A DNA stretch of 27,621 nucleotides from Pedobacter sp. (GTDB lineage Bacteria; Desulfobacterota; Desulfuromonadia; Desulfuromonadales; Syntrophotaleaceae). The stretch spans positions 1 through 27,621 of the forward strand of contig JBFWJC010000012.1 of the NCBI GenBank assembly GCA_050253415.1. The letters run 5' to 3'. The notes under the pieces were generated by a model. It was not told where the DNA came from and did no database searches. It saw only the letters and a list, made by a program, of their open reading frames with translations. Of this stretch, positions 8,037 to 27,621 are shown one piece after another (position 1 is the first letter of the stretch; each line of letters begins with the position of its first letter). The translations under genes were made by a program, and so were the position numbers.

Positions 8037-8060
8037 GCAGAATTCCTCCGGACGGCCCGC

Positions 8061-8076
8061 GTTACGTTTGTGTAAC
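8061..8076. promoter_or_regulatory. Second GTTAC-N6-GTAAC palindrome (probable autoregulatory site)
   Basis: cGTTAC-GTTTGT-GTAACg directly downstream of the TATTCT -10 (8079-8084, minus strand). Confidence 0.55.
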
Positions 8077-8106
8077 GAAGAATAAGGCGGCTTCTCCGGA
8101 GAAGCC

Positions 8107-8120
8107 TTGACCTGAATCAA
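8107..8120 (-). promoter_or_regulatory. Crp/Fnr-family box upstream of the activator gene
   Basis: TTGAC-CTGA-ATCAA with a TATTCT -10 at nearly the same spacing as the 2632 promoter. Confidence 0.6.
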
Positions 8121-8340
8121 TTCAAGGTTTAAAGAGGGGGATCCATGCAGAAATTCGGCAGATCTCAGGGTTTCTAGGCGAAAAACTCTCGAAGAAGAGA
8201 GCTTTCAAAACTGACTCGACACCCTGTCCGACAAAGACAAGGAAGAATTGGAAAATGAAAGAAACGGCAAAGCATTTCCGGAGTCGGCCTTTATTTTGAT
8301 GCGGTCTAAAGAGAAAGAGGTTGCTGGCAAGCAAGGAAGT

Positions 8341-8535
8341 GTACCTGATATCCCGCAAAGCCAGGCTAGCATGTCCTACGGGACATTAGGTACTGTCCTA
8401 CAAGGGATATCAGGTACACTCTGTGGCTCCGCAAAAATGCTTCAAAAAAGCGTACCTGATATCCCGCCTGTATCCATAAAAAGCTATTTAAGAGATATCA
8501 GGTACCGGTGAAGCTTACTACGGGACATTAGGTAC
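8341..8535. repeat. Cluster of six 14-bp GTACCTRATRTCYC motifs in mixed orientation
   Basis: Forward at 8341 and 8452; reverse at 8380, 8404, 8492 and 8522. Flanked by an identical 16-mer at 8165-8180 and 8610-8625. Confidence 0.9.
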
Positions 8536-8618
8536 TCCCTGCTTTCTTGGCTTAAAGGCATCCATCAATTATTACGGCTGATGGCTACCCAGGTTGGAGT
8601 TTCTAGCCTTCAGGGTTT

Positions 8619-8795
8619 CTAGGCGGGTGTCCAATAACAACGCTTGGGTGACACGATCTTTTCTTCTTTTTTTAATTGCGCCATGGCCTTGTCGACCTCT
8701 TTTCGGTCCAACCCGCTCAGCTCGGCAATCTTGCCCGCATTAAGGGGTTGCCCTTCCTGACGCATCACTTCGAGAACCTTTTCCTTGGTATCCAT
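8619..8795 (-). CDS. Small (58 aa) winged-HTH protein
   Basis: [11 protein letters not shown]...[19 protein letters not shown]...SPKRCYW; AAGGAGG RBS. Confidence 0.82.
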
Positions 8796-8847
8796 TCTCA
8801 GCCTCCTTGAGTGCACGGGGTTGATGACTTCGCGGGCAGGTGATTTT

Positions 8848-9219
8848 TCACCAGGTCTGAGTAGCGGAGTCAATTGTGACGACGAGGGTGGCACGCAGCC
8901 AGCTAAATATCGATTTCAGGGTATCGAAATCGGGACCGGATGACACGAAGGCCGCCTTCCCCTTAATCAAAAAACCAGCTCCAGGCCCATGCAAGCCCTT
9001 TACTTTACTGCTGCCGAGAGTGATCAACACCTCCGAGTTGTGCTTGATGTTTTCTTCCGTCTTGTGCATGTAGCCCGCAGGAATCAGCATGCGGCCTTCA
9101 GGTGAGATACGGATATACGTGTTCCACGTATTGACCATATGTGGTCCATCTTGCCCCAAAGTGGCGATCGCGACAACACCATCTTTTTTAAGGATCTCCT
9201 GCAGTTTTTCCGGGATCAT
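8848..9219 (-). CDS. FMN-binding split-barrel protein (pyridoxamine 5'-phosphate oxidase-like)
   Basis: [25 protein letters not shown] and [10 protein letters not shown] closely resemble Desulfovibrio FMN-binding protein; AGGAG RBS. Confidence 0.9.
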
Positions 9220-9278
9220 AGTCATTCTCCTGACATATCGAGGTTTTTGGTTATGAGCAATATGAGAATAGTTGATTG

Positions 9279-9324
9279 CTGGCCCTGTTAAAAGGTACAA
9301 TTTTGGCAAAAAACATGGGTACAG
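9279..9324. promoter_or_regulatory. Probable MocR operator (two direct repeats plus one inverted repeat)
   Basis: GGTACA at 9294 and 9318 plus inverted CTGGCCC at 9279, in the divergent intergenic region. Confidence 0.4.
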
Positions 9325-9429
9325 ATCGTTTTTCTGACTTCAAGTAAGGCTTCAATTTTCCTGAGGTTTGATATTTGCCACGGGAGACCGCATGTTTGTC
9401 GGAACAGTCCCCTAGATTGAGGTGAAGCC

Positions 9430-10845
9430 ATGTTCACTCTGAACGCTAAGGATGTCACACCGCTCTATCGACAACTTTATCAGCAGATTCGTGACCAGAT
9501 TCTGTACGGCGAACTGCCGGCACATTCAAGGCTCCCCTCGATTCGAGATCTGGCTGTTGAGCTGGAAACAAGCCGCAATACCGTCGAGGGGGCATACCAG
9601 GAATTGTGTGCAGAAGGGTATCTCTACAGCCAGCCGCGAAGTGGATATTTTGTTTCGAACATCGACCAGGTATTCACTTCAAGCGATCAAGTGATTCCAG
9701 TACAACAGGACCTTCATCCCAGGCTGGCCGAACGTTATCGTTATGATTTCCATCCCGCTCGTCTGGACCCGCACATCTTCCCCTCGTCTCTCTGGCGCAA
9801 ATGCCTCATCGAGGGGCTTCGATCGGACTCGGGAGCATATTCAGAGTATAGCGACCCTCAAGGAGAATGGGGGCTGCGTTGCAACCTTCAATATTACCTG
9901 GAACGCTCACGCGGCGTACACTGTTCTCCCGACCAGATCGTTATCTGTTCAGGCTTGCAGCATGGTCTGGATGTGGTTGCGCAAATCATCCGGACCCGGC
10001 AACGTTTGGTGGCAGTCGAGAATCCTGGTTATCATCTCCCTCGTGAGCTCTTCCGCAACCACGGCTTTACTATTTTACCCATCGATGTTGGCCCCGGCGG
10101 AATCAAACTGAACGACCTCAAGGCGAGTGCGTGCACCGTTGTCTACGTCTCTCCCTCGCACCAGATGCCGCTCGGCCATGTGATGCCTGTCGCCAGCCGG
10201 ATGGAGCTGATCTCTTGGGCAAACCAGGAAGAACGGCTGATCATTGAGGATGATTACGACAGTGAACTTCGCTACGTTGGGAAGCCGATATCTTCTCTTC
10301 AGGGGCTGAATCCCCAGGGTAATATCATTTACCAGGGGACTTTCTCCAAGGTCTTTTCGCCTGCCTTGCGCTTAAGTTACATGGTTCTTCCGCGCACAAT
10401 GCTGGATGCCTACAATCGCCTTTTCCGCCATTATCTCTGCCCGGTCCCCCTGCTTACCCAAAGAGCAATGATCCTGTTTATGGAGCGTGGGCATTGGGAC
10501 CAGCACCTCCGTCGGTGTCGGATCTATTACCGAAAGAAGCACGATGCCATGCTGAAGGCGATCGAACAATCATTTGGATCACGTGTCAGAGTGATTGGTC
10601 AGGGCGCAGGCCTCCATGTTGTGCTTGAATTGACCGAAGGGCTGACGGATCAAACCCAATTGATAAATAGGGCAAAGCAAAAAGGCTGTCGGCTATTGTC
10701 TTTTTCCGATTTTCTTGTTTCGGCCAGCTCTGAGACGAACAAGTTGCTGTTGGGTTTTGGCGGAATCCGTATTGAAGATATCCCTCAAGGAGTACAAATC
10801 CTCTCGACTCTCATTGACAGGCAACGACAAGGTGAAGCTAAGTGA
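9430..10845 (+). CDS. MocR/GabR-family regulator (GntR wHTH plus PLP aminotransferase-like domain)
   Basis: PLYRQLY...LPSIRDLA...SRNTVEGAYQEL; SHQMPLG, IIEDDYDSE, GTFSK, GAGLH. Confidence 0.93.
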   Translation: MFTLNAKDVTPLYRQLYQQIRDQILYGELPAHSRLPSIRDLAVELETSRNTVEGAYQELCAEGYLYSQPRSGYFVSNIDQVFTSSDQVIPVQQDLHPRLAERYRYDFHPARLDPHIFPSSLWRKCLIEGLRSDSGAYSEYSDPQGEWGLRCNLQYYLERSRGVHCSPDQIVICSGLQHGLDVVAQIIRTRQRLVAVENPGYHLPRELFRNHGFTILPIDVGPGGIKLNDLKASACTVVYVSPSHQMPLGHVMPVASRMELISWANQEERLIIEDDYDSELRYVGKPISSLQGLNPQGNIIYQGTFSKVFSPALRLSYMVLPRTMLDAYNRLFRHYLCPVPLLTQRAMILFMERGHWDQHLRRCRIYYRKKHDAMLKAIEQSFGSRVRVIGQGAGLHVVLELTEGLTDQTQLINRAKQKGCRLLSFSDFLVSASSETNKLLLGFGGIRIEDIPQGVQILSTLIDRQRQGEAK

Positions 10846-11023
10846 CCTATGCAAAAAACCTCTAAAGAGCATAAAAAACTTTGGTTCTCGGGTCAGGATC
10901 TTTTCTGGCGGTGTAAATATTTTTGTGCAAGGAGCTTTTACTCCCCTTTCGAACACTCTCCGGTTGGACCGCACATTAACGAAATTCCTGACAGGCTTCC
11001 GGGAGAGGGTGATGGCTCAGGGC

Positions 11024-11092
11024 CAAAACGGGGACAGTTTCTAAAATGACACAAAATGATCCAATAAAATTTACGGGGACAAAACGGGGACA
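11024..11092 (+). repeat. Three ACGGGGACA direct repeats (integrase arm-site-like)
   Basis: CAAAACGGGGACA at 11024 and 11080; ACGGGGACA at 11073. Confidence 0.6.
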
Positions 11093-11099
11093 CTGAATT

Positions 11100-11247
11100 T
11101 GTCAATCGGCATCGAAATCTGGCCCATCAACGGCGTCCAACCTCGGCCCACTGCGAAACCGTTTTGTATCTAATTTCATTGGGTTGTAATGTTTTACACT
11201 TTTGGCCCATGTGCTGATAGTGGGTCAAAAATGACAGCCGATCAACA
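11100..11247 (+). mobile_element. 148-bp miniature IS21-like element without transposase
   Basis: TGT...ACA termini and imperfect IRs TGTCAATCGGC / TGTTGATCGGC, with internal repeated TGGCCCA/TGACCCA motifs. A second partial copy lies at 2446-2554. No target duplication seen. Confidence 0.7.
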
Positions 11248-11432
11248 GGTGCAATGGATGACCCCTTGTGTGCTTGCACAGAACTGAAACGGGAGGTCCA
11301 ATCAAGCAAAACCGATCATAAGTAGTACAATTAACGTAGTTTTCTTTTTTCGAAAGTACAGACAGAGGGCGGTACTGCGAACCTGGAAAACAGGTTCCAA
11401 TGAATTCTTTCCCGAGAGAAAAGGTGTAAATC

Positions 11433-13862
11433 ATGCGAGATCCTGTGTGCGACATGGAGGTCACCCCCGATTCCAAAGGCGGAACAACACAGTGGCAGGG
11501 AGAAACCTATTACTTCTGCTCGGATAAATGCCAAGAGAAGTTCACGGCTGACCCCAAAGCCTATATAACCAAGGATCCGGTCTGCGGCATGACCGTGAGC
11601 AAGGAGAAAAACGCCGGTTCCCATACCCACAAGGGGACCGAATATCTGTTTTGCTCGACCAAGTGTCGGGAAAAATTCGTGGCCGATCCCGATGCCTATC
11701 TTCATCCGCAGCCGAAAACATCCGATCCGGCTGCTGCGTCGCGGAAATACACCTGTCCGATGCACCCCGAAATTATCCAGCAGGGGCCAGGAAACTGTCC
11801 CAAGTGCGGCATGGACCTGGAGCCCTTGAGTGCGTCCACCGACGACGCTGAAGAGGAAGAGGCGGTTATTCGGAGTTTGAAGCGCAAAACTCTTGTTGCC
11901 GGCGCGCTGACCCTGCCCGTTCTGCTTCTCGCTTTCGATAGCATGATTCCAGGGCTCTCCTTTGAAGGGTTCCTTTCAGCGAAGCTTCAGGGCTGGTTGG
12001 AGCTTATTCTGGCGACACCCGTCATTCTGTGGGCGGGCAGCATGTTTTTTACTCGAGGCTGGCGATCCATCGTCAACCGCAGCCTGAACATGTTCACACT
12101 GATCATGCTGGGTGTCGGTGCGGCCTATGCTTATAGCGTCGTGGCGGTTCTGTTTCCGGAACTCTTCCCGGATTCCTTCCGCATGCATGGTGAAGTCGCC
12201 CTGTATTTCGAGGCGGGCACGGTCATCACGACCCTCATCCTGTTCGGGCAGTGGCTCGAAGCCCGCGCCCGGCGGCAGACCGGTAAAGCCATCCAGAGTT
12301 TGCTGGGCCTCGCGGCCAAAACCGCGCACCGGGTCAAGGAGGACGGAGAGGAAGAGGAAGTGGAGATCGACACCATTGAAAAAGGCGACCGCCTGCGCGT
12401 GCGGCCCGGCGAAAAGGTTCCTCTCGACGGCGTCATTCTCGACGGGAACAGCAGAATTGACGAATCCATGCTCACCGGCGAGCCGATCCCCGTAAAGAAA
12501 GGCGTGAATGACAAAGTCATCGGCGCCACAGTCAACCAGACCGGCAGCTTCGTCATGCGCGCTGAGGCCGTGGGCGAGGAAACCATGCTCGCCCGGATCG
12601 TAAAAATGGTCGCCGAGGCCCAACGCAGCCGGGCACCAATTCAGAAACTGGCCGACCAGGTTGCGGGCTATTTTGTGCCTGCGGTCGTACTGACCGCCCT
12701 GATCGCTTTCGCGGTCTGGGCCGCCTTCGGCCCGGCGCCAGCCATGGCCTACGCCATCGTGGTCGCCGTTTCTGTGCTGATTATCGCCTGCCCCTGCGCG
12801 CTGGGTCTGGCCACCCCCATGTCCATCATGGTCGGTGTCGGCAGAGGTGCCCAAAACGGCATCCTGATCAAAAACGCCGAAGCCATCGAACGCGCTGAAA
12901 AGGTCACGCACCTCATCACTGACAAGACCGGCACGCTCACCGAGGGCAAGCCCTCAGTTGTCGATGCGCAAGCGCCAGACGAGGTTAAAACCGGCGACTT
13001 GTTGCGTCTGGCGGCGGCTGTCGAGTCTCAGTCCGAGCACCCCCTCGCCCGGGCTGTTGTCGGTAAGGCGAAGCAAGAGGAACTGGAACTGCCGGACATC
13101 ACCGACTTCGGGAGCACGACCGGTGGCGGCGTCCAGGCCAGAGTCGAAGGTGCGCTGATTCGTATCGGCAAACGGACATTCCTCGAAGCGGCAAAGATCA
13201 GCATCCCCGACGCGCTGACGAAGGAAGCGGAGCGCCTGCAAGGTGAGGCCAAGACCGTCATCTGGGCGGGACGCAACGATCAGCTCCTCGGCCTCATCGC
13301 TATCGCCGATCCGATCAAAGAAACCTCGAAGGAGGCTATCGAATCGCTGCACGAGATGGGGATCATCGTGGTCATGTGCACGGGGGATAATCTGCGCACT
13401 GCCAAAGCTGTGGCCAAAGAATTGGGGATCGATGAAGTACATGCCGAAGTCTCTCCCGAGGACAAACAACGCATTGTCAATGAATTGAAGGCCAAGGGAC
13501 ACCGCGTTGCCATGGCGGGTGACGGAATCAATGACGCACCCGCCCTTGCCGCCGCCGACGTGGGCGTCGCCATGGGCACAGGCACGGACGTTGCCATCGA
13601 GAGTGCCGGGCTGACCCTGGTGAAGGGCGACCTGCGCGGCATTGTGAATGGCTTACGCCTCAGCCGCGCGGTTATGCGCAATATCCGCCAGAACCTGTTT
13701 TTCGCCTTTATCTACAATGCAACCGGTGTACCTATCGCAGCAGGAGTGCTCTATCCCATCTTCGGTATCCTGCTCAGCCCGATGATCGCCGGTGCCGCCA
13801 TGGCCTTCAGTTCTGTTTCGGTCATCAGCAACGCCTTACGACTGCGCAAGGTCACGCTTTAA
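11433..13862 (+). CDS. copA: Cu(I)/Ag(I)-translocating P1B-type ATPase with two YHS domains and a heavy-metal-binding domain
   Basis: DPVC-M x2, YTCPMHP...[32 protein letters not shown] and MAFSS. Confidence 0.93.
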
Positions 13863-13981
13863 TCGGGGAGAAGACCTTATGCGACCACACACAAGCAATC
13901 GGCGTGGACCAGACAATCCGGCCACAATGGATCTGATAAGCACAACTACTCAAACCCGAAATTGAAACGGAGGGTCATACC

Positions 13982-14209
13982 ATGATGGGGAATCATATGT
14001 ATAACAACACCATGTGGGGAGGGCATTGGCTGTGGATGCTGGTGATCGGCATTGTGGTCGTCGTCCCGGTCTGGCGTATCTGCCAGCGCGCAGGATTTCC
14101 GGGCTGGCTGGGAATTCTCATTCTGATTCCCGTCGCTAATCTCTTTTTACTTTATTTCATTGCCTTTGCAGATTGGCCCATAGAAAAAACTGGTGGTCAT
14201 AATGGTTAA
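13982..14209 (+). CDS. Small two-helix membrane protein
   Basis: GGAGG RBS; two hydrophobic segments with WRI-xx-RAGFPGW...IP...FADWP. Confidence 0.75.
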   Translation: MMGNHMYNNTMWGGHWLWMLVIGIVVVVPVWRICQRAGFPGWLGILILIPVANLFLLYFIAFADWPIEKTGGHNG

Positions 14210-14210
14210 G

Positions 14211-14243
14211 TGTTGAGTGCCACGAGATCGCTGACACTCAACA
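14211..14243. mobile_element. 33-bp TGT...ACA palindrome, possible collapsed IS21-type scar
   Basis: TGTTGAGTGCCA-N9-TGACACTCAACA interrupts an ATG-GTT-AAG start that overlaps the upstream gene's end. Confidence 0.45.
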
Positions 14244-14761
14244 GGTTTATCCGATTATTTATCAGCCTTTATGATGTTCCGGGATCTCACCTCCTCTGGT
14301 TTGTGGAGGGGGGTGTGGCGATTGGAAAGCTTTGTATTCAGCGACCTGCTGTTTGATCATAGTGAGTTGGATGGAGAAGTGGTCAGGGAGGCGGCTATCT
14401 GCCAAAGTCCTGCAGAAGCCTCTGGAAAGATCTATCGAAATTATTAGAAGACCAGCCGGGCTGTCGGGTTGTTTTTTGTGGGATAATCTACAGCCTTCGG
14501 CAATATTCAACAGAGGAAAATTAGGGAAAAGCAGTGGCGTGCGGATTGTGTTCCTAAAAAACAGGAATGAGTCTGAGGTCAAATGTTACCTGGGCCCTGC
14601 ATTTTGACGATCTCCCGGCTTTCGGTAGCCGTTCCTTTGACGGAGGATTGGGGCTTGGCCTGAAACCTGCTAAAAGGATGTGAGTCCGCCCGAAACCTTT
14701 CATTGCCACCCTGTCGTTTCTGCCTGGCTTGGGCCGGCAGAAATCTGGAGAGTATTGATAA

Positions 14762-15385
14762 ATGAAACGCCTTGTTTTTTTAATTCTCCTGCTGGTTATT
14801 CCGCTAACGGCGTTCGGTACAACCATTGAAGTGACGCCTGGTATCCTTTTGCATGTCGAATTGCCCAGTGACCACTGGCAGGTAAGTGCTTCGCCTCCCG
14901 AGACCCTGGTGCAGGAGACCGCTGCCCACCTGGGGCAAGAGATGCTGAGAAAAGCCGGAAAAGAAGATCCAGCAGAAGTGGCACGCGACATCCTTTCCGT
15001 TAATGAGCTTTTTATTGTCAATGCCGAGAGTGGCGCCTGGCTGGCTGTTGATTTCAGCGCTCTTAGAGAGGGCGAACCGGCTCCTGGGCGGCGAGCGGTG
15101 AAGCGGTCGGCGGCCTTCGCCGGACAGGCCTTGCAAGGCGAAGAAGGGCTCAGCGACGTGAAGCATGACATCGAGAAAATACGAATCCCGGGGGCTCAAT
15201 ACGCCTATCAGCTTGAAGCGACCTATCGCAGGCATGATGAACCGGTTTTGTTTTGTGGCGTGATCGGTTTTGCCGATCGTCATTGGTTTTACCTGTACTA
15301 CACGGACTTCAAGCGCAATCCGGAAGATTACCGCAAGATGAAGGAGATCCTCCGCTCTATCAGGCTAAAGGTGGAGCGGAGCTGA
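14762..15385 (+). CDS. Secreted/periplasmic hypothetical protein
   Basis: Signal peptide MKRLVFLILLLVIPLTAFG; GGAG RBS; first gene of the cytochrome cluster. Confidence 0.78.
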   Translation: MKRLVFLILLLVIPLTAFGTTIEVTPGILLHVELPSDHWQVSASPPETLVQETAAHLGQEMLRKAGKEDPAEVARDILSVNELFIVNAESGAWLAVDFSALREGEPAPGRRAVKRSAAFAGQALQGEEGLSDVKHDIEKIRIPGAQYAYQLEATYRRHDEPVLFCGVIGFADRHWFYLYYTDFKRNPEDYRKMKEILRSIRLKVERS

Positions 15386-15472
15386 TTGGCCAGCCTTGAT
15401 CAGGCCCTGAACGCTGGTCGTCAGCACGGTAGCAGGAGCGCCGCTACAACAGGATGATTTTGGGGGTATGCG

Positions 15473-17119
15473 TTGACACAAGACAACCAAATGCCAAAAG
15501 AAGATTCCGCGCCCCCCCGCTGGATAACGCCCCTGCTGGCCGTCGCCAGTTTGCTGGTGCTGGCCGCTTCCCTGCTCGCCCTCCTGACCGGTGACAATCA
15601 CGATCACCAATTCCATGGGACTATCGCGGATATTACCGTCAACCTGGGCGGCAGCCCCGTCCGTGAACATTGCACGACCTGTCATACGGAGGGAGGACGT
15701 CCCACTTGGGAAGGCACCCATTGGATGAGTGCCTCGCATCCTGACATCACTCCTCATGCGCCGGAACGCCTGGGCTGCACGGGCTGTCATCTGGGTGAAG
15801 GGATGGCGATGGACCGTACATTCTCCCATGGCCTGCCTGGACTGGGAGGGCGGCAGGTGCTGCAGGGACAGCAAGTGCAGGGACGATGCTATGTCTGTCA
15901 TGAGCTGGAAGTTCTGCCGGGAGCAGAGAAGGCCTGGAACGGCTACCGGCTTTTTCGGCAAAAGGCCTGCTATCTCTGTCACTATCTGAACGGCATGCCT
16001 GAAGGCAGCGGGTTCGGACCGGATCTGAGCCATGTCGGTTCGCAGCTGGGGCTGGCTCAACTGGAAAAGGCCATTCGAGACCCCCGCGCCGAGCCTGACA
16101 ACTCGACCATGCCGCGCTTTCCCCTCTCCCGCAATCAGGTGCGTGACCTCACTTATTTTCTCAAGAGCCGGGTGGAGGCGCCTCTCTTTACCTCGCCCAT
16201 GTGGGTAACGGCAGGTCGCCCCGCTGTGGCGGTACCGGACGTCGTCCCCGAAGATTCCTCTCTGGTGGCGGGAGAACGACTTTTATGGCAGGGAGGCTGT
16301 CTGGCCTGTCACCAATACAAAGAGGAGGATGGTCGCATTGCTCCTGACCTCACCCGTGTAGGCAAGATGCGTGACCGGGATTACCTTGAAGGTTTTCTGG
16401 AACATCCGTCGCGGTTGATCCCGGGAGCTGCCATGCCGCCATCCCTGCTGAACGCCGCAGACAAGGTGGAACTGGTCGAATTTTTGGCGGGAGCAACCTC
16501 CGAAGAGGCGCATCATCTGGAGGCGAAAAAAGTCTATATGCATCACTGTCAGCGATGCCATGCTGCCAATGGCGACGGCAAAGGACTTATCCAACCCAAT
16601 CTGGCCCAGTTTCCGCGGGCTTTTCTGGGCAATGACGGGTTTTTCCGGGGGGTCACTGATTCACGGTTGCGGGACAGCCTCGCCCGGGGCATATCCGGAA
16701 CCTCCATGCCGCCTTATGAGCATGTTTTGTCCGCAAAATCCCGAAAGGACCTGCTCGATTTAATCTTCCAATCCTTCATCGGTATCTCTCGGGAAGACAA
16801 GGTGGAGGAGACACCGCTGCCTCCCAGGCCGGATGCCCTGCCTCTGCAACGGGCTGAACGCCTCTATGACCGGTTTTGTGCAGAATGCCACGGGAGAAGC
16901 GGCACCGGCAAAGGACCCAAGGCCAGCAGGCACCTGCCGCGTCCCCGCAATTTGACCAACGCTCCCTTTTTTACAGCCGTTGAGGATGAACGCATTCTGC
17001 GAGGGATTCTCAATGGTGTCTCCGGGACCGCCATGCCTGCATGGCGGGGAGTGGTCAGCGACGAGGAGGCGTGGGCCCTGGTAGAGAAAGTCCGACGATT
17101 CTCAGGAGGCCGACCATGA
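15473..17119 (+). CDS. Membrane-anchored seven-heme cytochrome c
   Basis: CTTCH, CTGCH, CYVCH, CYLCH, CLACH, CQRCH, CAECH; N-terminal TM helix; four xxMP distal-ligand motifs. The start could be 15491. Confidence 0.9.
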
Positions 17120-17559
17120 ATCGGCGCCAGTGGTTGTTTCGCGCAATCTCCATGCCCGCCTTAGCTGTGGCAGGTGCTGCCCTCGGTGGTATTTTTTCGC
17201 AGGTCTGGCTGGCCGCGGGCCGTTTTTCTTCAAGACACTGGTCTGACGTGACGGCGGTGAACAGCCTTCCTGAAGAGGGAACCAGCGCCTTTCCCGGCCA
17301 GCGTGTCGCCCTTTTGTGCCGGGGGGAGGATATTGGCGCGTTGAGTCTTGAATGCACCCATTTGGGGTGCCTGCTCAACACCGTTGACCAGGGATTTTTC
17401 TGCCCCTGTCACGGCAGTGAATTCGCGTCTTCAGGCAAAGTCCTATCGGGGCCCGCTTCAAGGGACCTCGACTGGCTGCCGGTGCGCATTCAAAACGGAC
17501 GGGTTTGGATCCAGGGCGGCACCCGCCTTGATTCGCCCCTCTGGGTTAAGCGAGGTTAG
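17116..17559 (+). CDS. Rieske [2Fe-2S] subunit
   Basis: CTHLGC and CPCHGS; twin-arginine MNRRQWL; ATGA overlap and GGAGG RBS. Confidence 0.92.
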
Positions 17560-17563
17560 GTCC

Positions 17564-18613
17564 ATGCCGCCGTCCAAACGTCACTTTTTTAGTCACCTGC
17601 ACCCCGTCATGGTCTACCGGCGCACGCTTTCGCCCTCGACGACCCTAGGACTGGGCATGGCCTGCCTGACCTGCCTAGGGGTCCTGTTGGTCACTGGGGT
17701 GACCTTGTTCCTGTACTATACGCCGGATACAGCCGTGGCCTATGAGCGAATCCTGCACATCACCACGACCCTTTATTTTGGGCGTCTGATTCGGAATCTC
17801 CACTTCGTTGCAGCCAATGCGCTCATCGTTCTGGTGTTTCTCCATATGGCGCGCGTCTTTTTCACCGCGGCCTACAAGTCCCGTTCTTTGAACTGGCAAT
17901 ACGGCTTGGTTTTGCTGCTCCTGGTTCTATTCGCCAATTTTACGGGCTATGTGCTTCCCTGGGATCAGGTTGCCTATTGGGCGACCAAGGTTGCCTCTTC
18001 CCTTGCCGAGTATATCCCCTTTATCGGTGACGGGCTGCGCCGCTTCTTGCTGGGCGGTTCCCAGGTTGGCGTGGAAACCCTGCTGCGTTCTTTCGCTTTT
18101 CATGCCGGCGTGATCCCTCCACTTATCGTGGTCTTTACTGGCCTGCACCTCTGGCGCATTCGCAAAGACGGTGGTCTTGCGGCACCACCCCATCAACTGG
18201 GCGACAAGATCCCGGCGGCCCCCTGGCTGTATCGCGCCGAAGCAAGCGTGGCCCTGCTGACCCTTGCCCTTCTCCTTTTTCTCGCCCTGGGAGTCGATGC
18301 CCCGCTCTTTGAGCGTGCCGATCCGAATCATCCGCCCAATCCGGCGAAAGCGCCCTGGTATTTCGTCGGCTTTCAGGAACTGGTCGGCTATTCGGCCTTT
18401 TGGGGTGGTGTTGCCGTTCCCCTGTTTCTGTTTATTTTCTTTGTGCTGGCGCCACACCTTGACCGTACTGCGAGCCCGCCGGGTATGTGGTTTGCCAGGG
18501 ATCGTTTCCTGCTCAATGTCTTTTTTGGCGCTCTTCTGCTGAGCCAGGTCGGTTTTATCATTGTTGGACAATGGTTTCGGGGCCCCAACTGGGGCCTGAT
18601 CTGGCCTTTTTAA
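17564..18613 (+). CDS. Cytochrome b (b6-like domain fused to subunit IV-like domain)
   Basis: Four heme His (RNLH...FLH, AFH...GLH), GYVLPWDQ, PNPAKAPWYF. Confidence 0.92.
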   Translation: MPPSKRHFFSHLHPVMVYRRTLSPSTTLGLGMACLTCLGVLLVTGVTLFLYYTPDTAVAYERILHITTTLYFGRLIRNLHFVAANALIVLVFLHMARVFFTAAYKSRSLNWQYGLVLLLLVLFANFTGYVLPWDQVAYWATKVASSLAEYIPFIGDGLRRFLLGGSQVGVETLLRSFAFHAGVIPPLIVVFTGLHLWRIRKDGGLAAPPHQLGDKIPAAPWLYRAEASVALLTLALLLFLALGVDAPLFERADPNHPPNPAKAPWYFVGFQELVGYSAFWGGVAVPLFLFIFFVLAPHLDRTASPPGMWFARDRFLLNVFFGALLLSQVGFIIVGQWFRGPNWGLIWPF

Positions 18614-18633
18614 CGAACTGAATGGAGGTTTTT

Positions 18634-19143
18634 ATGAAAACGAACATTTTTCGTCTGACTTCGGTCATCGCTGCTGCCTTGGTCTTCTTGTTGGCAGCGG
18701 GCCATGTATTTGCCGGCGACGACCAGGAATTCAACCGCATACTTAATCTCGGTATGGCTGACTTGACCCAGGAATCCCTGGCGCTTCTTGACAGCAAATA
18801 TCCTGATGAAGACTGGGATGCGGTTAAATTCCCCCAGTATGTTTTTACCAGCGATTCGGTGGAGGCAGGCTACATGATTGCGGTAAAGGAGCCAGAACTT
18901 CTTAAGAAATTCAAGTGCTACTGCTTCTGCGACACCATGGGCCATGCCGATCTGAGCTGGTGTTTTCTCAAGAAGGGGAAACTCAAAAAGGGATTCGACG
19001 ATCACGGGTCCGACTGCAACATCTGTTACGGCCAGGCCATGATGGCCCTTTTGTGGCAAGAGGCGGGTTTTTCAGCGGAGAAAATGACGCTCGGGTTTGA
19101 GAAAAAATTCGCCAAGCTGATTGAACAGTTTGGGAATAAATAA
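18634..19143 (+). CDS. Exported PCYCGC-like Cys-rich protein
   Basis: Signal peptide; KCYCFCDTMGH-x-L-xx-CF...DDHGSDCNIC; GGAGG RBS. Confidence 0.8.
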   Translation: MKTNIFRLTSVIAAALVFLLAAGHVFAGDDQEFNRILNLGMADLTQESLALLDSKYPDEDWDAVKFPQYVFTSDSVEAGYMIAVKEPELLKKFKCYCFCDTMGHADLSWCFLKKGKLKKGFDDHGSDCNICYGQAMMALLWQEAGFSAEKMTLGFEKKFAKLIEQFGNK

Positions 19144-19343
19144 TTGGGCAGGTCGCACGGAGGAAGAGTGCCGGCCTGCTTTTCCTGATCAGGAGTTAGT
19201 CATGGGATCTGGGCATCGCTCCATGCAGTCAGTCTTACGCTGACATGAATCGCCGTTTCTCTCAGAACCTGTTTTTCTCGTTCTTTCAGACGTCCGATTC
19301 ATGGCACGGAACGTATCTAAGACCATGATACGTTCCGTGCCTC
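19127..19343 (+). repeat. Copy 1 of a diverged direct repeat (copy 2 at 22266-22539), ending in a perfect 15-bp hairpin
   Basis: The first 127 bp align gap-free at 97/127. GGCACGGAACGTATC-N9-GATACGTTCCGTGCC at 19303-19341. Confidence 0.8.
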
Positions 19344-19369
19344 AAATGGAATCCGGTTCAGGGCAAAAC

Positions 19370-19640
19370 GTTAAAGAGCTTTTTTTCAACAACCCGTAAT
19401 CTTTCCTGTAACACGCCAAGGCTCCTGATCCACCAGCCATAAGATAGACAAGCCTCCTCGGCTCAGGCCAGCCTGGACGATAGAATGCGGTTGCTCCCCA
19501 ACAAGCCATCACCAACGAAGCCAATCTATGATGGCACATGGCGCTCTAGCCTTTTAGTATCAACAGCAGGCCACCTAGATGGTGCCGATTGCCCTGCCAG
19601 GATTACCAGCCTTTCTTGACCTGGCGCAAGCAACGCATCC
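19370..19640 (-). pseudogene. Possible highly decayed IS3-family orfA relic
   Basis: Patches (QVKKG; RKDYGLLKKS with an A-run) resemble the IS3 relic at 22590-23150. Confidence 0.3.
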
Positions 19641-19669
19641 GCACCCTCCCTTTGGCAGTTTTTCGCAAC

Positions 19670-20368
19670 CTAAGCTTCAGATTGTTTTTCGCTCTTTCTT
19701 GCCCAATGCCATTTATGACTAAGAATAGGCACCAGGGAAAAGCCCCCCAACAGCACAAAGGAACCGAGGACTCTTGGTGAGACGATTCCAGCCATCGACT
19801 CGATGGAAGCAAGACTCGCTCCCGCGTTGACATAGACAAAGGCTCCCGGAAGAATACCCACGAAGGTTCCCAGGAAGAACGTGCGAAGGGGCAGTCGGGT
19901 CAACGCCGCTACGAGGTTGATGAGAAAAAAGGGGAAAATGGGAACAAATCTCAGAAACAGCAGATAGTTTAGTCCGTCCCTTTCCAGGGCGACATTCAGC
20001 GTATCCCATTTTGAACCGACTCTTTTCTGCGCCCATCCACTCAAAAGGTAACGAGACACCAGAAACGCGCAGGTCGCTCCCAAGGTTGCCCCCGTTACTG
20101 CAAAAAGCGTCCCCTGGAAGACCCCGAACAGAGCCCCTGCAGCCAGGGAGAGCAGCAAAGCCCCGGGAAGGGATAGCGCTGTCTGAATGATGTAGAGCAG
20201 GATAAAAGCAATCGGAGTGATCAGCCGATTCCTGGCATAAAAGGCCTCCAAGGCATCCCGGTGCGTTTTAATCCCTTCCAGCGACAGGAAACGATTCAGG
20301 TCAAGGGCAAAAAACAGCGCCACCAGTCCTGCCAAAATCAGGACCAAAAGGATTTTCTTCTTCTCCAT
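19670..20368 (-). CDS. DedA/TVP38 (SNARE-associated) membrane protein
   Basis: LSLPGA-LLSLAAGALFG, GATLGA, LRFVPIFPFFLINL, F-GT-VGILPG. Confidence 0.92.
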   Translation of the reverse strand: MEKKKILLVLILAGLVALFFALDLNRFLSLEGIKTHRDALEAFYARNRLITPIAFILLYIIQTALSLPGALLLSLAAGALFGVFQGTLFAVTGATLGATCAFLVSRYLLSGWAQKRVGSKWDTLNVALERDGLNYLLFLRFVPIFPFFLINLVAALTRLPLRTFFLGTFVGILPGAFVYVNAGASLASIESMAGIVSPRVLGSFVLLGGFSLVPILSHKWHWARKSEKQSEA

Positions 20369-20406
20369 GGGGTCTCCAGACATTTTAATATGGAACGGGT
20401 TTGCGC

Positions 20407-20955
20407 CTATTTCCCGTTATTCAACGAATCTGTTTTTCCCGGTTCGATGCCGAAGGCGCGATTGAAGCGGGCACTAAAATTCTCCAGGGCGATGGCGGCC
20501 GTCAATTCCACCATCTGGACTTCATTTAACTGCGCAGAGAGCTTTTCAAAAAGTTCGTCCGTAACACGCGAAGGCGTTGCCGTGACCGCCTCGGCATAGG
20601 CCAGGACATTTTTCTCCAGGTCGGTAAACAAGTTGCTGCCGCGGTAATCGGCGAGCGCAGCTATTTCTTCGTGGGTTATTCCCGCCTCACGGGCGAGACG
20701 ATTCGTCAGATCAATTCAGAACGCGCACTCGACCTGCCGTGCCGTCCAATACATGGCAAGCCTCTTCAATCTCTCTGGCAGTTCACCCGGAGCGCGGACC
20801 GAACGGCCCAGGCCAAGGAACGATTTTAGAATGCTTGGTTTCCAGCCATACACCCACAGAGGGGTCGGGACTCCGCCGGAGCGCGATCCCATAATCTTGA
20901 ACAGAACCCGCAACCAGAAAGGACCTTTGGATTTCTCAATTCCAGCAATACGCAT
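20407..20955 (-). CDS. AhpD/carboxymuconolactone decarboxylase-like selenoprotein (182 aa, CxxU)
   Basis: Track ORFs 20716-20955 and 20407-20631 share one frame, separated only by the TGA at 20716-20718 in ECAF*IDL. The intervening codons are open, and a hairpin follows the TGA. Confidence 0.85.
20683..20715 (-). promoter_or_regulatory. Candidate bacterial SECIS element
   Basis: CGUCUC-GCCCGU-GAGGCG stem-loop; the loop begins with G after a 21-nt spacer 3' of the UGA. Confidence 0.6.
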
Positions 20956-21008
20956 AGTTTTTCCTCCTATTTATTGACTCGTTTTCCTAACGCCCCCCTG
21001 GGCGCGGA

Positions 21009-21914
21009 TTAATGGCTTCGCGAAGCGGTTCGAATGGTCCTGTTGACGGGCAGTGCCTTGTTGTTGGCCCATTCAATCCATGAACCGTCGTAATTTTCGA
21101 CGCGGTACCCGAGTCCCAACAGAACCAGGGTCGCATAGGAAGAACGGATCCCGGTTTGGCAATGGGCCACGATGTCCTGCTCAGGCGTGATTCCGGCCGC
21201 CGTGAGCAAGGCCCGAATCTCCTCCTCGCTCTTAAGTACCCGGACGCCGTCGACCTCCTTCTGCAGGTTCGTCCATTCCAGATGAACGGCGCCGGGAATG
21301 TGCCCGCCGCGCTCGGCCCGGATATCGGATCCATCGAATTCCTTGTAGCTGCGCGTATCCCAAACCATCACCCCAGGATTTCCCAGACGGGTCAGAATAT
21401 AGTCTGTCTCTGCCCGGATATCTCTGCCTGGCTGGCAATGATAGCCTGCCGTCGGCACCACCTGAGTGGGGAGAAACGCTGTGGGGCCGTTTTCCTTGGT
21501 CCACTTGTTAAAACCACCATCCAGGACGTAGGACCGTTCATGTCCGTGGTATCGGAGAGTCCAGATAAATCGTGCGGCGTACGGGTTGTCATCCTCGGCA
21601 TAGGCGACCACGGTCGTATCCGGCGTAATGCCATAGCGATCCATTAAGAACGCGAACTCCGATACGGTTGGAACCAGGCTTTTGACCCCGCCCCGGGTGG
21701 ACAGAAATTGCTGCTTTGGGATGCTGAGCGCCCCCTCAATGTGACCGAGAAGATACATAGGGGTCACACGTACATCGACAATTTTGACCTGGTGCCGGCG
21801 CTTGGCCAACCAATCGGTGGTCACGAAAAAATCACCCAGTTCGGCAAAAGCCGAAGAGGCTGAGAAAATGAGCCCAAGGCCCCCCAACAACAATACCAAC
21901 ACAATCTTCCGCAC
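21009..21914 (-). CDS. Exported tandem-domain rhodanese/sulfurtransferase
   Basis: Signal peptide (SSAFA), GHIEGA, LDGG, GGHIPGA, active-site CQTGIRS, YDGSWIEW; GGAGG RBS before GTG. Confidence 0.92.
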   Translation of the reverse strand: MRKIVLVLLLGGLGLIFSASSAFAELGDFFVTTDWLAKRRHQVKIVDVRVTPMYLLGHIEGALSIPKQQFLSTRGGVKSLVPTVSEFAFLMDRYGITPDTTVVAYAEDDNPYAARFIWTLRYHGHERSYVLDGGFNKWTKENGPTAFLPTQVVPTAGYHCQPGRDIRAETDYILTRLGNPGVMVWDTRSYKEFDGSDIRAERGGHIPGAVHLEWTNLQKEVDGVRVLKSEEEIRALLTAAGITPEQDIVAHCQTGIRSSYATLVLLGLGYRVENYDGSWIEWANNKALPVNRTIRTASRSH

Positions 21915-22265
21915 AATACACCTCCGTCGAAAATGGTTTGTCTGCTATCAAAACGTGCTTGCCACCATATGCTAACCACATTACTTTGGTCAACAATAAT
22001 TTTATATAAACATTACTTTTTTGTCGTGGTTTAAATGAATAATCCAAACAAATTTACGCACACTTTGGTGTGTTTTATCCGACGAAGTAAAGGGATAAAT
22101 GCTTGGATTTTCGCGAAGGGATGTTAAATAGGGGAGATAGGGGCTCTGTTTACAGACTTTCTGGAGGGTTTTAGCTAGAGGCGCAAAAGACGATCAAACA
22201 TTGCATTCTGGTGGGGGAAAAAAATCTAGACGCTTTCAAAACACCAGACTCAAAGCCCTGAAGGG

Positions 22266-22539
22266 AGTTCGGGAATAAATAATCGGACACAATGCACGGA
22301 GGTTGAATGACAGCCGGCTTTTTCTGATCCGGTGTTGGCCATGGAATCTAGGCTTCGCTCTATGCTTGCCGGCCTGCCCTGACATGAATCGCGGAATATT
22401 CTTCATCTGGGAGAGAATATTCCGCACATCCGCTGCTTGCCGTTTCGTTCAAGAACTTCTTTCTGTGTGTTTTCAGGCGCTTGACCCAGAGCAGATTCAT
22501 GGCACGGAATGTGTTAAGGACAAGGGTACAGTGTGCCTC
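22266..22539 (+). repeat. Copy 2 of the diverged direct repeat, with internal insertions
   Basis: Shares GGGAATAAATAAT, GCACGGAGG, CTGACATGAATCGC and GATTCATGGCACGGAA with 19127-19343. Confidence 0.8.
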
Positions 22540-22589
22540 CGATGAGGCGTGGTCCTGGGTAAGACCTTAAAGTGCCTTTTTTTGCCAAT

Positions 22590-23150
22590 GACGCATCCTG
22601 AAATGCCTTGACCTTTTTCTGCTGGAGAAAAGGCCAGATGAGCTGCAAACAAGCTCAAGGCACTGTGGCATTCAAGGGCGCTCTACTATCCTGGCCTGGC
22701 TACGAAAGCATGGAACGTTAGACTGTCGACGGAAACACGTATCCGATCTCAAGATGATTCATATGTCTGATGACAAAGATTCCATAGAAAACCCCGAGAA
22801 GAGGACAAAGGCCCTTGAGGTGCATATCAGGGCGGCTCGGGAGAAGGCCGAACTTTTTGACGCGATTGTCCATGTCCTTCGGGAAGATTACGGGGTCACT
22901 GTCAAAAAAAAGCGTTTAGGCAAGTCCTAGCACAGAAAAAACCCCAAAACGTGTGTATTTGCAGACTCTTCCATGAAATGGGCCTTTGCCCTTACTGCAG
23001 CCACTCCCTTCCATCGCAACCAAAGACCGCGCCACCCTTCCCCACCAGTCGTGAACCATCACGGAAGCAAGATAGTCCGCAGAGACTGGTCAAACTAAGA
23101 CAGCGCAGCGGCATATGGGTTCTGGTTTCTTTGGTTCAGAGCATGCAGGT
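22590..23150 (+). pseudogene. Decayed IS3-family transposase (orfA and start of orfB)
   Basis: Frameshifted EKGQMSCKQAQ / GIQGRSTILAWLRKHG / AREKAELFDAIVHVLREDYGVTVKKK, with an A-run at the orfA/B junction. Boundaries are approximate. Confidence 0.7.
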
Positions 23151-23288
23151 TCATCAGGAAAACGGGTCCGGTCCCGGTTTGCTCCAGAAAAACAAATATT
23201 GGCAACACTTCGGAAAAATACCCTTTCAGGGTAAACCTCTTCGCTCCACCTTCGTCTAATGAGAAACTTTCTTTCCCAGGAGTAATCA

Positions 23289-24623
23289 ATGCAAGCAAAA
23301 ACCGTTTTTCTAAAGAGGATTCAGTTCTGGTTAGTGAGTGCCGGCATGGCTCTCCTTGTCACCGGCTGCGGAGGATCCGGCAGCAGCGATCCAGCGCTGG
23401 TTCAGCAGCCGGCCCCGGCGTCGACCGTAATCGGCACACTGAGTACAACGGACAGTGTCCAGGTTGCAACCCTGGCGGTGGCCTCCGAAACGCAGCCTAC
23501 TCTCACTCTCGACGATAGCACCACGGAAATCCCTCTTGGCCCTCAGGGGTATTTTGAGGTAAGAGGCATTGCCGACGGGGATCATTCGCTCTATCTGCAT
23601 CAAATGTCCGGCCAGGTCACGGAGATCCCTTTTCGAATGCTGGAAGGACGTGGTCTGAATCTCGGCACCGTAACCATGCGAGACGGTGCTCTCGTGGAGC
23701 ACACCGGATTTAACGGCTACCACTTCGGATTTATCGATGAAAACGGTGACGGCATCAACGACAACTTCATGGACGCCGATGGCGACGGTATCTGTGATCA
23801 AGGGGGGTTGTACGCTGGGTATACCTACATGATGGAATCAGGGTTTGTCGATGAAGACGGCAATGGCATCAACGATCTGTTCCGAGACGCCGACGGTGAC
23901 GGTATAAACGACTTGAACCAAATGGTCTACGGGCACGGGTTTGGTTTCGTGGACACCAACGGCGACGGAGTCAATGACCGTTTCGTAGACGCCAACGGCG
24001 ACGGCATTTGCGACCTTACAGGCATGCCCTTCCGTCACCCCTTCGGATATCAGGACGAGAACGGGGATGGCATCAATGACCTTTTCGTCGATACAAACGG
24101 CAATGGCTACAACGACCTGACCGAGAGGGCCTACATGCCGATTCCAGGCTGGGTTGACCTGGACGGTGATGGGGCAAATGACTATTTCAGAGACGCCAAC
24201 GGTGACGGCATTGGCGATCTGTCTGACTTGCCCATGTCCTATGGCCACGGCTTTGGCTGGGTTGATGCGAATGGCGACGGCATCAACGACCGCTTTGTGG
24301 ATGCAAACGGGGATGGCATTAACGACTACGCGGGAGGCCCCTACGCACAGATGCCCTATCGCTACGGATTCGGCAGCCGCCATCAGGACGACAATGGCGA
24401 CGGCATCGATGACCTGACCGGCCGCTCCTATTGCACGGGGTTCGGCTGGGTTGATGCAAACGGCGATGGTATAAACGACGCCTTCATCGACACCGACGCA
24501 GACGGGGTCAACGACGTTACCGGATACCATTACGACAGGGGTTACACCATGGAGTCCGGGCACCAGGGATATAGGGACGGAACAATCGATTGGCCCATGC
24601 ACGGCAGTGGGATGATAATGTAA
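23289..24623 (+). CDS. Lipoprotein with 15 Dx[DN]GDG-type calcium-binding-like repeats
   Basis: Lipobox LVTG-C followed by a Gly/Ser linker; repeated GF/WVDANGDGINDxFxDANGDGIxD units; AGGAG RBS. Confidence 0.85.
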   Translation: MQAKTVFLKRIQFWLVSAGMALLVTGCGGSGSSDPALVQQPAPASTVIGTLSTTDSVQVATLAVASETQPTLTLDDSTTEIPLGPQGYFEVRGIADGDHSLYLHQMSGQVTEIPFRMLEGRGLNLGTVTMRDGALVEHTGFNGYHFGFIDENGDGINDNFMDADGDGICDQGGLYAGYTYMMESGFVDEDGNGINDLFRDADGDGINDLNQMVYGHGFGFVDTNGDGVNDRFVDANGDGICDLTGMPFRHPFGYQDENGDGINDLFVDTNGNGYNDLTERAYMPIPGWVDLDGDGANDYFRDANGDGIGDLSDLPMSYGHGFGWVDANGDGINDRFVDANGDGINDYAGGPYAQMPYRYGFGSRHQDDNGDGIDDLTGRSYCTGFGWVDANGDGINDAFIDTDADGVNDVTGYHYDRGYTMESGHQGYRDGTIDWPMHGSGMIM

Positions 24624-24644
24624 CTCACCCCTTGCCTTGAATCC

Positions 24645-24683
24645 AAAGCCCGCAGAAACCCACCGGAATCTGCGGGCTTTTTT
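24645..24683 (+). terminator. Intrinsic terminator
   Basis: AAAGCCCGCAGA...TCTGCGGGCTTT stem followed by a T-run. Confidence 0.8.
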
Positions 24684-24742
24684 GTGCTGGAAAGTCGGAG
24701 CTTTTCGATTGAGTTTTTCTATAGGCTCAACGACGAGCCCAA

Positions 24743-24937
24743 TCATCTCATATCACGGCGGATCAATCTTTTCTCAAGCTCTTGCTCGAAGATACTGGAG
24801 AGACAGCGCCTGACATAATTACCCTGATTATGCAGTGCGACACAGACAACGACATCTGCGCCATAAACAGAGCTTGGGGCCAGGGGTTGAATCAGTCGGA
24901 TATTACGAGGGGAAAGAATCATTGAATAGGATGTCAA
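24743..24937 (-). pseudogene. N-terminal fragment of a family-2 glycosyltransferase
   Basis: DVVVCVALHNQGNYVRRCLSSIFEQ matches the GT2 first strand/helix; the ORF ends abruptly afterwards. Confidence 0.65.
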
Positions 24938-24951: not shown

Positions 24952-25794
24952 TTAGTTAATCGACGCGGTGTGCCGACACGAGGGGAATCCGGAGCAACCC
25001 CAAAATTCGCGACCAGCATGTCGACCGTGGTTTGTGACACGCCTTACCAAGGATTTGCCACATTTGGGGCATTGTGGGACAAAATTCGACGGCTGAATGG
25101 GACGGTTGTCATGGACATTTGTCTCTTTTCCAGACCCTCGAATCATCTTATGCAGGTGCGAGCCATCGAATAGTCTGATGTTCAACCCGCCCACAAACTT
25201 CTTCGCTTCTTCCGTAAACTCTCCGGCTGTGATGACAAAACCACCCGCAGCCCCTTGGGCTGACATAACTCCGTAGAGTTCACGGACTGTTTGAACACCA
25301 ACCTTGTAGGCTTTCCACTGCTTGCACTGGACAAAATAGCGGTCGGATCCTTTGCTGGCGATAAGATCGACACCACCATCAGGACCGTTGCCACCGGTCT
25401 GCTTAACCGAGTACCCACGTCGGCGAAAGAACTCGTTGACCAGAGTTTCAAACTGTTGCCAGGTCATATCAAATAATACGGCCCGGTCGGGCTGGGACCG
25501 AACATGATCAAACCGCTCTTTCTGCTTCGCGCTTCTGATGAACGAGCCAAGTGCACCAAAACCGAACAGTATCGGAAACACATACTGGCCAAAGCTCGCC
25601 AAGGTTACGTAGAGCTGCTTCCCAGCAAAAGACCCTAATCCGGAGACCCCGGTTGGTTTGGCGACTTCAATCCCAGCGACCATGTGCAAACCGACATAAG
25701 AAAAAACTGCCAGTACGCACCCAACCCACCAAGGGAGTCGACTGACAATTTCAACCACATCTTCGGCTGCTGAAGTTTTTCGACGTCTGGCCAT
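24952..25794 (-). CDS. Membrane-anchored Mrr-like restriction endonuclease with C-terminal Zn-ribbon
   Basis: Two TM helices, W--FE, DGGVDL...QCK (PD-(D/E)xK variant), CPKCG...FWGCSGFPSC. Confidence 0.9.
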   Translation of the reverse strand: MARRRKTSAAEDVVEIVSRLPWWVGCVLAVFSYVGLHMVAGIEVAKPTGVSGLGSFAGKQLYVTLASFGQYVFPILFGFGALGSFIRSAKQKERFDHVRSQPDRAVLFDMTWQQFETLVNEFFRRRGYSVKQTGGNGPDGGVDLIASKGSDRYFVQCKQWKAYKVGVQTVRELYGVMSAQGAAGGFVITAGEFTEEAKKFVGGLNIRLFDGSHLHKMIRGSGKETNVHDNRPIQPSNFVPQCPKCGKSLVRRVTNHGRHAGREFWGCSGFPSCRHTASIN

Positions 25795-25816
25795 ATCTTG
25801 CAATCCCTTACAAAAG

Positions 25817-26471: not shown

Positions 26472-26586
26472 ATTTGCCCAAAAGTCTCGGGCAGACCTCC
26501 ATGTTTTCGACGCCGGATACACACTTGCCGAAAAACTGGGGGAGATTGAATCGCTGTTTGCCGGCTTTCTGAAGGGCTTTAAGTAA
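26472..26586 (+). pseudogene. Orphan 3' fragment of the alpha/beta hydrolase gene
   Basis: Translates FAQKSRADLHVFDAGYTLAEKLGEIESLFAGFLKGFK*, versus FAQKTQAELHVFNAGHTLTEKLGEIESLFAGFLKGLP* in the intact gene. Confidence 0.88.
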
Positions 26587-27500: not shown

Positions 27501-27621
27501 CAGGCCGTTGAAAAACTATACGGGAGTCGGCCTATTACTCCCTTGAGCACTTTTTTTGATCTTTGATAACCTTTGTTCCGCTGATTTCGGGTCGTTAGAC
27601 CCCGTTTTGGGGCTCCCTTTC
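27501..27621. mobile_element. End of a probable IS5/IS1182-type insertion sequence
   Basis: CAGGCCGTTGAAAAAC begins right after CTAA, exactly where the KAP homology stops. Confidence 0.6.

Follow-up and report, generated by a model that had tools for sequence, protein, structure and literature searches.

The DNA analysed here (the window) makes up all of contig C12, 27,621 nt long, from genome bin G000, which comprises 4.10 Mb in 18 contigs and is 100% complete and 1.25% contaminated. Two open reading frames of 79 and 74 amino acids lie on its minus strand on either side of a TGA codon, where an earlier note on this DNA had proposed that an ORF caller split a single selenoprotein gene. The locus contains the following features:

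21009..21914, minus strand: tandem rhodanese/sulfurtransferase gene, co-directional, upstream across a 53-nt gap
20963..20968, minus strand: Shine-Dalgarno-like AGGAGG, 7 nt upstream of the ATG (read from the sequence)
20407..20955, minus strand: CMD/AhpD-fold (YciW/COG2128-like) predicted selenoprotein gene with the motif C77-A-F-U80 (read-through translation, Pfam, structure model)
20716..20718, minus strand: in-frame UGA, codon 80 (predicted selenocysteine, Sec), opposite the second Cys of CxxC homologues
20680..20698, minus strand: putative bacterial SECIS hairpin with a 7-bp stem and the loop CGUGA (20691-20687), -10.7 kcal/mol, covarying
19670..20383, minus strand: VTT/DedA-family membrane protein gene, co-directional, downstream across a 23-nt gap

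The read-through frame (20955-20407) runs for 182 codons from an ATG at 20955 to a TAG at 20409-20407 and contains only one TGA, at codon 80, in the context ECAF-TGA-IDLTNRLAREAG (QVECAF-U-IDLTNRLAREAG in the protein). Pfam CMD (PF02627) matches the read-through product with an E value of 1.9e-9 and 37.8 bits (cut-off 23) over residues 40-123, that is, across the TGA codon; neither the 79-aa nor the 74-aa half matches any Pfam family alone. A structure model of the 182-aa protein (mean pLDDT 85.9) has helices throughout, and the nearest structures to it are Bmp8, followed by the AhpD-like PA0269, Atu0492 and peroxidase-related proteins. The score above cut-off and the all-helical AhpD fold of the predicted model place the protein in the CMD/AhpD superfamily. 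Since PF02627 spans the TGA, the proposal that the two frames join into one 182-aa CMD/AhpD-fold protein holds.

Gene callers split the sequence at the TGA and several database entries start just past the Sec site, which would fit a pair of separate small genes. Against such a pair, the CMD domain crosses the TGA and the TTG start of the 74-aa frame is not conserved, its homologues having ATG, AGG, GCC, ATC, GTC or CTG instead. Relative to the orthologues in genomes G040 and G056, dN/dS is 0.14-0.15 for the whole gene and 0.17 past the TGA, with values of 0.03-0.30 for neighbouring genes. Promoter and terminator scans performed no better than chance level.

The UGA codon and a downstream hairpin are conserved throughout a clade

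A scan of species-representative genomes identified 22 loci, three of which are fragments without codon 80 and were left out of the count; the other 19, at 39-94% identity, all have TGA at this codon. These loci come from Desulfuromonadales, other Thermodesulfobacteriota and Planctomycetota. Within the order, an orthologue occurs in 11 of 233 genomes (the window's genome included), each with TGA. Thirteen of 16 metagenome loci were examined, three short fragments being omitted, and TGA is present in all 12 that cover codon 80; two metagenome contigs with a near-identical gene span just 1.9 and 2.3 kb, not enough to reveal their host. When each genome is counted once (four handles recurred and were matched via coordinates), 23 other genomes have TGA at codon 80. 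All 23 have Sec machinery: selA is present in 22, and the remaining genome (81% complete) contains tRNA-Sec and a TGA-containing SelD.

An alignment of homologues pairs the UGA with the second Cys of CxxC, as the earlier note had anticipated, and the TGA is invariant throughout the clade. In a 49-row tree, the 36 TGA rows form a single clade (support 95/87) separate from the Cys homologues. The window's gene groups there (support 100/98) with copies from g29, a genus of another family than the bin's, whose genomes are all Sec-positive.

Two sequences related to the clade deviate at this site. A clade-like database protein, P0003, carries Trp in place of Sec and begins with an aberrant N-terminus, reflecting either a degenerate gene or the gene caller's choice of code. 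A second gene copy in genome G028 (L025:1501-1797) has lost both the Sec codon and the SECIS to an internal deletion, which apparently arose via short TGCC microhomology.

The hairpin, UCUCGCC-CGUGA-GGCGGGA (20698-20680, minus strand), begins 17 nt past the codon (nt 21 when the U of UGA is taken as nt 1), and its loop begins 24 nt past the UGA. A stem-loop 21 nt downstream with G as the first loop nucleotide had been claimed; the hairpin stands, with a slight correction to the distance and with the G at loop position 2. Published modelling of bacterial SECIS elements specifies a loop of 3-9 nt, a stem of 4-16 bp, G at loop position 1-2, a distance of 16-37 nt from UGA and a minimum free energy of at most -7.5 kcal/mol (PMC13188914, the part consulted). 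With a 5-nt loop, a 7-bp stem, G as the second loop nucleotide, a distance of 24 nt and -10.7 kcal/mol, the hairpin lies within all four published constraints.

Stability alone does not set the hairpin above chance when compared to shuffles (z from -0.80 to +1.43). Across homologues (20 sequences, 19 distinct), 94% of cells are paired and four of the seven pairs have changed on both sides. The covariation score was reached by none of 500 shuffles, a test that kinship inflates; more weight is carried by the pair types and by slid controls, of which only 38-54% are paired. These comparisons suggest, beyond chance, that the hairpin is a bacterial SECIS conserved in the clade.

Invariance of the TGA down to 39% identity and covariation of the hairpin rule out a nonsense mutation, and on these sequence comparisons we reject this explanation together with that of two small genes. 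PF02627, the invariant TGA and the covarying hairpin thus uphold the proposed splitting of a Sec-type AhpD-like CxxU gene, and comparative sequence analysis confirms the locus as a real, if predicted, AhpD/CMD-like selenoprotein gene hidden by its internal UGA.

The clade is related to known AhpD-like and CMD-like selenoproteins

In the sections consulted, earlier publications describe AhpD-like (TIGR01926/COG2128) and CMD-like (PF02627) CxxU selenoproteins from Sargasso Sea data (PMC1088965), report their occurrence in bacterial genomes (PMC1794560), and list them in a recent review and database (PMC13188914, PMC13326102). Shared with these families are the fold, the CxxU motif with Sec at the second Cys, a coding-region SECIS, and Cys homologues outside the clade (PMC1088965 and PMC13188914, same sections). 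The window's protein differs in belonging to a separate all-UGA clade in Desulfuromonadales, other Thermodesulfobacteriota and Planctomycetota, and it scores 28.6 bits on TIGR01926, for which the cut-off is 81.8. The clade may already be catalogued under the broad AhpD-like/CMD-like names, for example among BSepDB representatives.

The best NCBIfam match, over the full length, is NF053654 (GroundWater_YciW, YciW-related (seleno)protein; E 2e-30), a family annotated as containing Sec in part of its members. Its cut-off is 310 bits, compared to 105.7 for the window's protein, 77-103 for four clade members and 136 for the bin's Cys paralogue; as judged by these scores, the window's clade is a sister group of NF053654 and not a member.

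Two further groups of proteins provide comparisons. Like the modelled protein, AhpD from M. tuberculosis and PA0269 from P. aeruginosa are all-helical and include the CxxC helix pair (Foldseek TM 0.66-0.69 for PA0269). Their CxxC works with a Glu/His relay, formed by E36 and H55 in PA0269 (PMC3141380, the part consulted). The window's protein, by contrast, has Sec for the second Cys and, by spacing, R65 and T84 at the Glu and His relay positions, and no ahpC lies beside its gene in the window. With these residues and 19.9 bits on TIGR00778 (cut-off 27.8), it falls outside AhpD alkylhydroperoxidase proper.

The tetrabromopyrrole debrominase Bmp8 (6OHI/6OHJ) is the top match in sequence (E 1e-12) as well as in fold (TM 0.73-0.74), over the full length at about 23% identity, and its CxxC aligns to the window's CxxU. 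Bmp8 catalysis presumably depends on a His three residues past the second Cys and on the Asn of FLNRWN; these positions are L83 and A162 in the window's protein, which thus lacks the active-site pair of a Bmp8-type debrominase. Because neither residue is kept, a Bmp8-like dehalogenase role, though possible, seems quite improbable.

A search of the literature by titles found none on the clade, on stranded island selenoprotein genes, or on an AhpD-copper link, which does not imply absence from print.

A selenol/thiol oxidoreductase role is suggested by fold and neighbours

In a host with selA, selB, selC and selD, SelB would bind the coding-region hairpin and bring Sec-tRNA to UGA80, by a mechanism that is established in general and would apply to this gene by extension. 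The U80 selenolate would then probably attack a peroxide or an oxidised partner thiol, after which C77 would resolve U80 as a selenenylsulfide and a cellular reductant would recycle the pair. A selenol is ionised at neutral pH without a Glu/His relay. Most Cys homologues in the alignment also have no relay His, so loss of the His is not tied to Sec.

Within the window, the gene lies between the rhodanese and VTT genes, on cargo that also encodes a CopA-like ATPase. Among 13 other neighbourhoods listed, a CopA-like ATPase gene is directly upstream in three (one of which also has Cus-type efflux genes downstream) and no such gene lies upstream in the remaining 10; one has an RND/CusA-type pump upstream and one has cysteine desulfurase and VTT flanks. 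Kin and shared islands inflate these counts. Since CopA-like ATPases, Cus-type efflux, rhodanese and DedA/VTT neighbours point to metal or redox stress defence, the protein somewhat more probably than otherwise functions there as a selenol/thiol oxidoreductase, judging by fold and neighbours.

The gene lies on a mobile island

The surrounding cargo is related to islands at tRNA-Arg(CCG) in the g29 genomes G040 and G056 and includes these features:

11100..24769: cargo block, with 91-95% identity to tRNA-Arg(CCG) islands in G040 and G056
11433..13862, plus strand: YHS/HMBD P1B-type (CopA-like) ATPase gene
11100..11247: 148-bp MITE-like element with terminal inverted repeats at the cargo edge, with a partial second copy at 2446-2554
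10907..11099: island-end sequence; in G040 and G056, some 75 nt separate it from the 3' end of tRNA-Arg(CCG)

Besides the heavy-metal P1B ATPase, the cargo block encodes cytochrome c, Rieske and cytochrome b proteins, a PCYCGC protein, the VTT protein, the selenoprotein and the rhodanese. Identity to G040 is 95% over window positions 11099-22137 and 91% over 22134-24769; positions 3106-8179 are 93% identical to G061. The island is mobile, given that g29 species resemble one another at 94-97% in the island and at only 84-93% in the core. Patchy distribution, a tRNA att site and identity above that of the host core, all marks of a tRNA-integrated island, are found in G040 and G056, and no integrase is encoded on contig C12 itself. 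The suspicion that the gene travels on mobile cargo is thus borne out by its place in these islands.

The 148-bp element, whose ends we take to be IS21-type, is repeated several times in G056 and G061, at the borders of cargo blocks. Its direct fusion to the island end in the window suggests a deletion or rearrangement mediated by the element.

Several other features of the contig were observed. Positions 15473-19143 encode a multiheme cytochrome c, a Rieske protein, a cytochrome b (ExtP/ExtQ-like, below cut-offs) and the PCYCGC protein, which has CYCFC, a Cys form, and reaches 48 bits, against a cut-off of 90, with the CYCXC (seleno)protein model; this cluster also lies beside the orthologue in G034. 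A predicted 444-aa lipoprotein (23289-24623) with many DxDGDG(I/V)ND repeats and no Pfam match is conserved in G040 and G056 with a dN/dS of about 0.2. Two genes for Mrr-type nucleases that carry a Top1 zinc ribbon (1952-2458, which looks truncated, and 24952-25803) are 83% identical over 439 bp, and a 108-bp repeat is present at 1816-1923 and 26472-26579. IS ends of two kinds lie at 1-127 and 27501-27621.

The genome bin very probably lacks the Sec trait

A search of the bin for the Sec genes, which the earlier note had called for, recovered SelD only. SelA is absent from the bin (also by tblastn with E. coli and same-genus SelA), as is SelB. For tRNA-Sec, the best Rfam match in the bin, at 47 bits, is tRNA-Trp(CCA), compared to 72-79 bits for true copies in relatives, and no tRNA with a TCA anticodon was found in the bin at default settings. 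TCA matches from relaxed ARAGORN (-ps80) numbered dozens among thousands of spurious calls and were discarded. The set of SelA, SelB, tRNA-Sec and SelD is present in the other carriers, with selA found in 22 of the 23, and in the g29 genomes. The bin is thus very probably Sec-negative. An absence of Sec machinery from the host had been named as grounds for calling the TGA a nonsense mutation; it does not make it one here, because the TGA is invariant across the clade.

It is very unlikely that the bin's organism is Sec-positive with selABC merely missing from the assembly. selA and selB are present in four of six same-genus genomes, and the assembly is in 18 pieces with 4,535 unreadable bases, which would leave room for such a loss. 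Yet the orthologous locus is closed: the genes that flank the selA-selB-selC cluster in the same-genus genomes G003 and G004 have adjacent orthologues on contig C3 of the bin, about 0.1-0.2 kb apart (near 105216-105380). The bin's FdhA, moreover, carries Cys at the position encoded by TGA in G004, and the one SelD of the bin is likewise of the Cys type.

This SelD (L001:134-2520) carries a fused N-terminal Se/S carrier domain (PF11823) and lies behind a cysteine desulfurase; in G003, the desulfurase and SelD-fusion pair adjoins selABC and a separate TGA-type SelD is encoded elsewhere. SelU is present in the bin, which would explain why SelD is retained, and a CRFC (Cys-type) paralogue of the window's protein is on contig C6. 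Two same-genus genomes (G001 and G006; 78 and 84% complete) yielded no selA, selB or true tRNA-Sec, and a sub-lineage of the bin's genus thus seems to be without the Sec trait. A de novo scan of the bin for stranded UGA genes gave 951 candidates and missed the target itself on upstream score, which makes it uninformative; FdhA and SelD alone were checked directly. The part consulted of a paper on orphan SelD and transfer (PMC5029168) had no effect on our reading.

Decoding of UGA80 in the bin's organism without SelA or SelB, by Cys or Trp read-through to a working or partly working enzyme, would accord with the intact frame, with purifying selection on both sides of the TGA, with the presence of SelD, and with the Trp of P0003. 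We consider it highly improbable, given that the bin has no TCA-anticodon tRNA at default settings, only tRNA-Trp(CCA) as its best tRNA-Sec match and no SelB-like factor, and that the purifying signal may predate any transfer.

The contig is probably misbinned

A Sec-negative bin implies either that the contig comes from another, Sec-positive organism, which we favour, or that the gene is stranded. We put the probability that the contig is misbinned and derives from a co-occurring Sec-positive g29-type organism at roughly 70%. Of the contig, 76% matches g29 genomes at 79-97% identity; 16 genomes of the bin's own family give matches of just 66-73%, to an ATPase paralogue. The orthologue is present in three g29 genomes and in none of those 16.

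Linkage within the assembly provides further evidence. K-mers at the ends of C12 are common to C13, C17 and C18 only, with three groups of core contigs separate, and shared k-mers suggest that C18, C17 and C12 belong together in a unit of about 37 kb flanked by a single IS in inverted copies. On C13, an att copy matches the g29 tRNA-Arg end at 30 of 30 nt and the bin's own at 26 of 30, and continues into sequence also present behind att sites in G056 and G061; the bin's own tRNA-Arg(CCG) site is empty. C17 contains a 640-bp stretch that is 84-86% identical in all three g29 genomes tested. Neither the inverted-repeat element nor the island end was found on the bin's core contigs. C13 (L079:5012-17056) also encodes a repetitive 4,014-aa ORF, with an HlyD-like gene and a GNAT-type gene pair behind it (labelled by sequence inspection).

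Run X1, which holds all sampled sequence words and is a possible source run only, contains a g29-like organism whose long contigs cover positions 1-11,678 of the G056 core at about 88-90% identity and a depth of 75-87. An X1 contig with the window's allele, recognised by its indel pattern, has a depth of 82. Each of these depths is one summed value. The bin's orthologues have no more than about 80% identity to the reference, too little for a depth of the bin itself to be read from X1.

Other observations run counter to misbinning. The contig is filed in a bin that is 100% complete and only 1.25% contaminated; a 2.36-kb cassette with 87-89% identity to island copies from g29 is found on the core contigs C1 and C4; of five genomes tested, it is a same-genus genome that has the nearest relative (84%) of the IS end on the contig's left; and a related IS inverted repeat is on core contig C5. 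The tetranucleotide correlation of C12 with the largest contig, 0.92, is inside the core-contig range, and host and donor are indistinguishable by this measure.

The competing account, that the island truly moved into the Sec-negative organism of the bin and that its gene is too recent to have decayed, deserves to be taken seriously and is nevertheless unlikely, misbinning being the likelier of the two. RF2 would then end translation at UGA80, leaving a 79-aa stub in a host that would keep SelD for selenouridine alone and that already encodes a paralogue of the Cys type. Such a transfer would be in keeping with the missing selA, selB and tRNA-Sec and the adjacent selABC-flanking genes on C3, with the Cys forms of FdhA and SelD, SelU and the CRFC paralogue, with the two Sec-less same-genus genomes, and with a mobile island on a contig bounded by IS ends. 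It is opposed by the absence of any kind of link to the bin's core contigs, by the g29-type att allele on a linked contig and the empty tRNA-Arg site, by the matching g29-like organism in the possible source run, and by dN/dS values in which relaxed selection is not seen. Unless the contig is misplaced, moreover, the bin would be the sole Sec-negative carrier among 24.

A broader proposal combines two parts: that an island carried an intact gene and SECIS into a selABC-deleted Desulfuromonadales lineage, before Cys conversion or decay, and that the gene stands for a clade of AhpD/Bmp8 fold that is all-UGA, His-less and unmodelled, maybe for copper or metal stress and less likely for selenium-based reductive dehalogenation. 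Taken jointly, we regard these as improbable.

Implications for the AhpD/CMD selenoprotein families

The gene appears to be a new member, and perhaps an unmodelled subfamily, of the known AhpD/CMD selenoprotein families. The finding is less novel than first proposed, because AhpD-like CxxU selenoproteins have been described since 2005. The sole surprising point is the Sec-negative bin, for which a binning artefact is more likely than biology. The annotation is nonetheless corrected to one 182-aa selenoprotein in place of two small ORFs, in a clade that is present in at least 24 genomes from two phyla, that lies below the cut-off of every NCBIfam model matched, and that is now provided with a SECIS showing clear covariation. 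Genes with a UGA and a SECIS could also serve as a binning check, as finding one in a bin without the Sec trait points to foreign DNA. Should the contig truly belong to this genome, it would offer a testable case of genetic-code incompatibility limiting mobile cargo.
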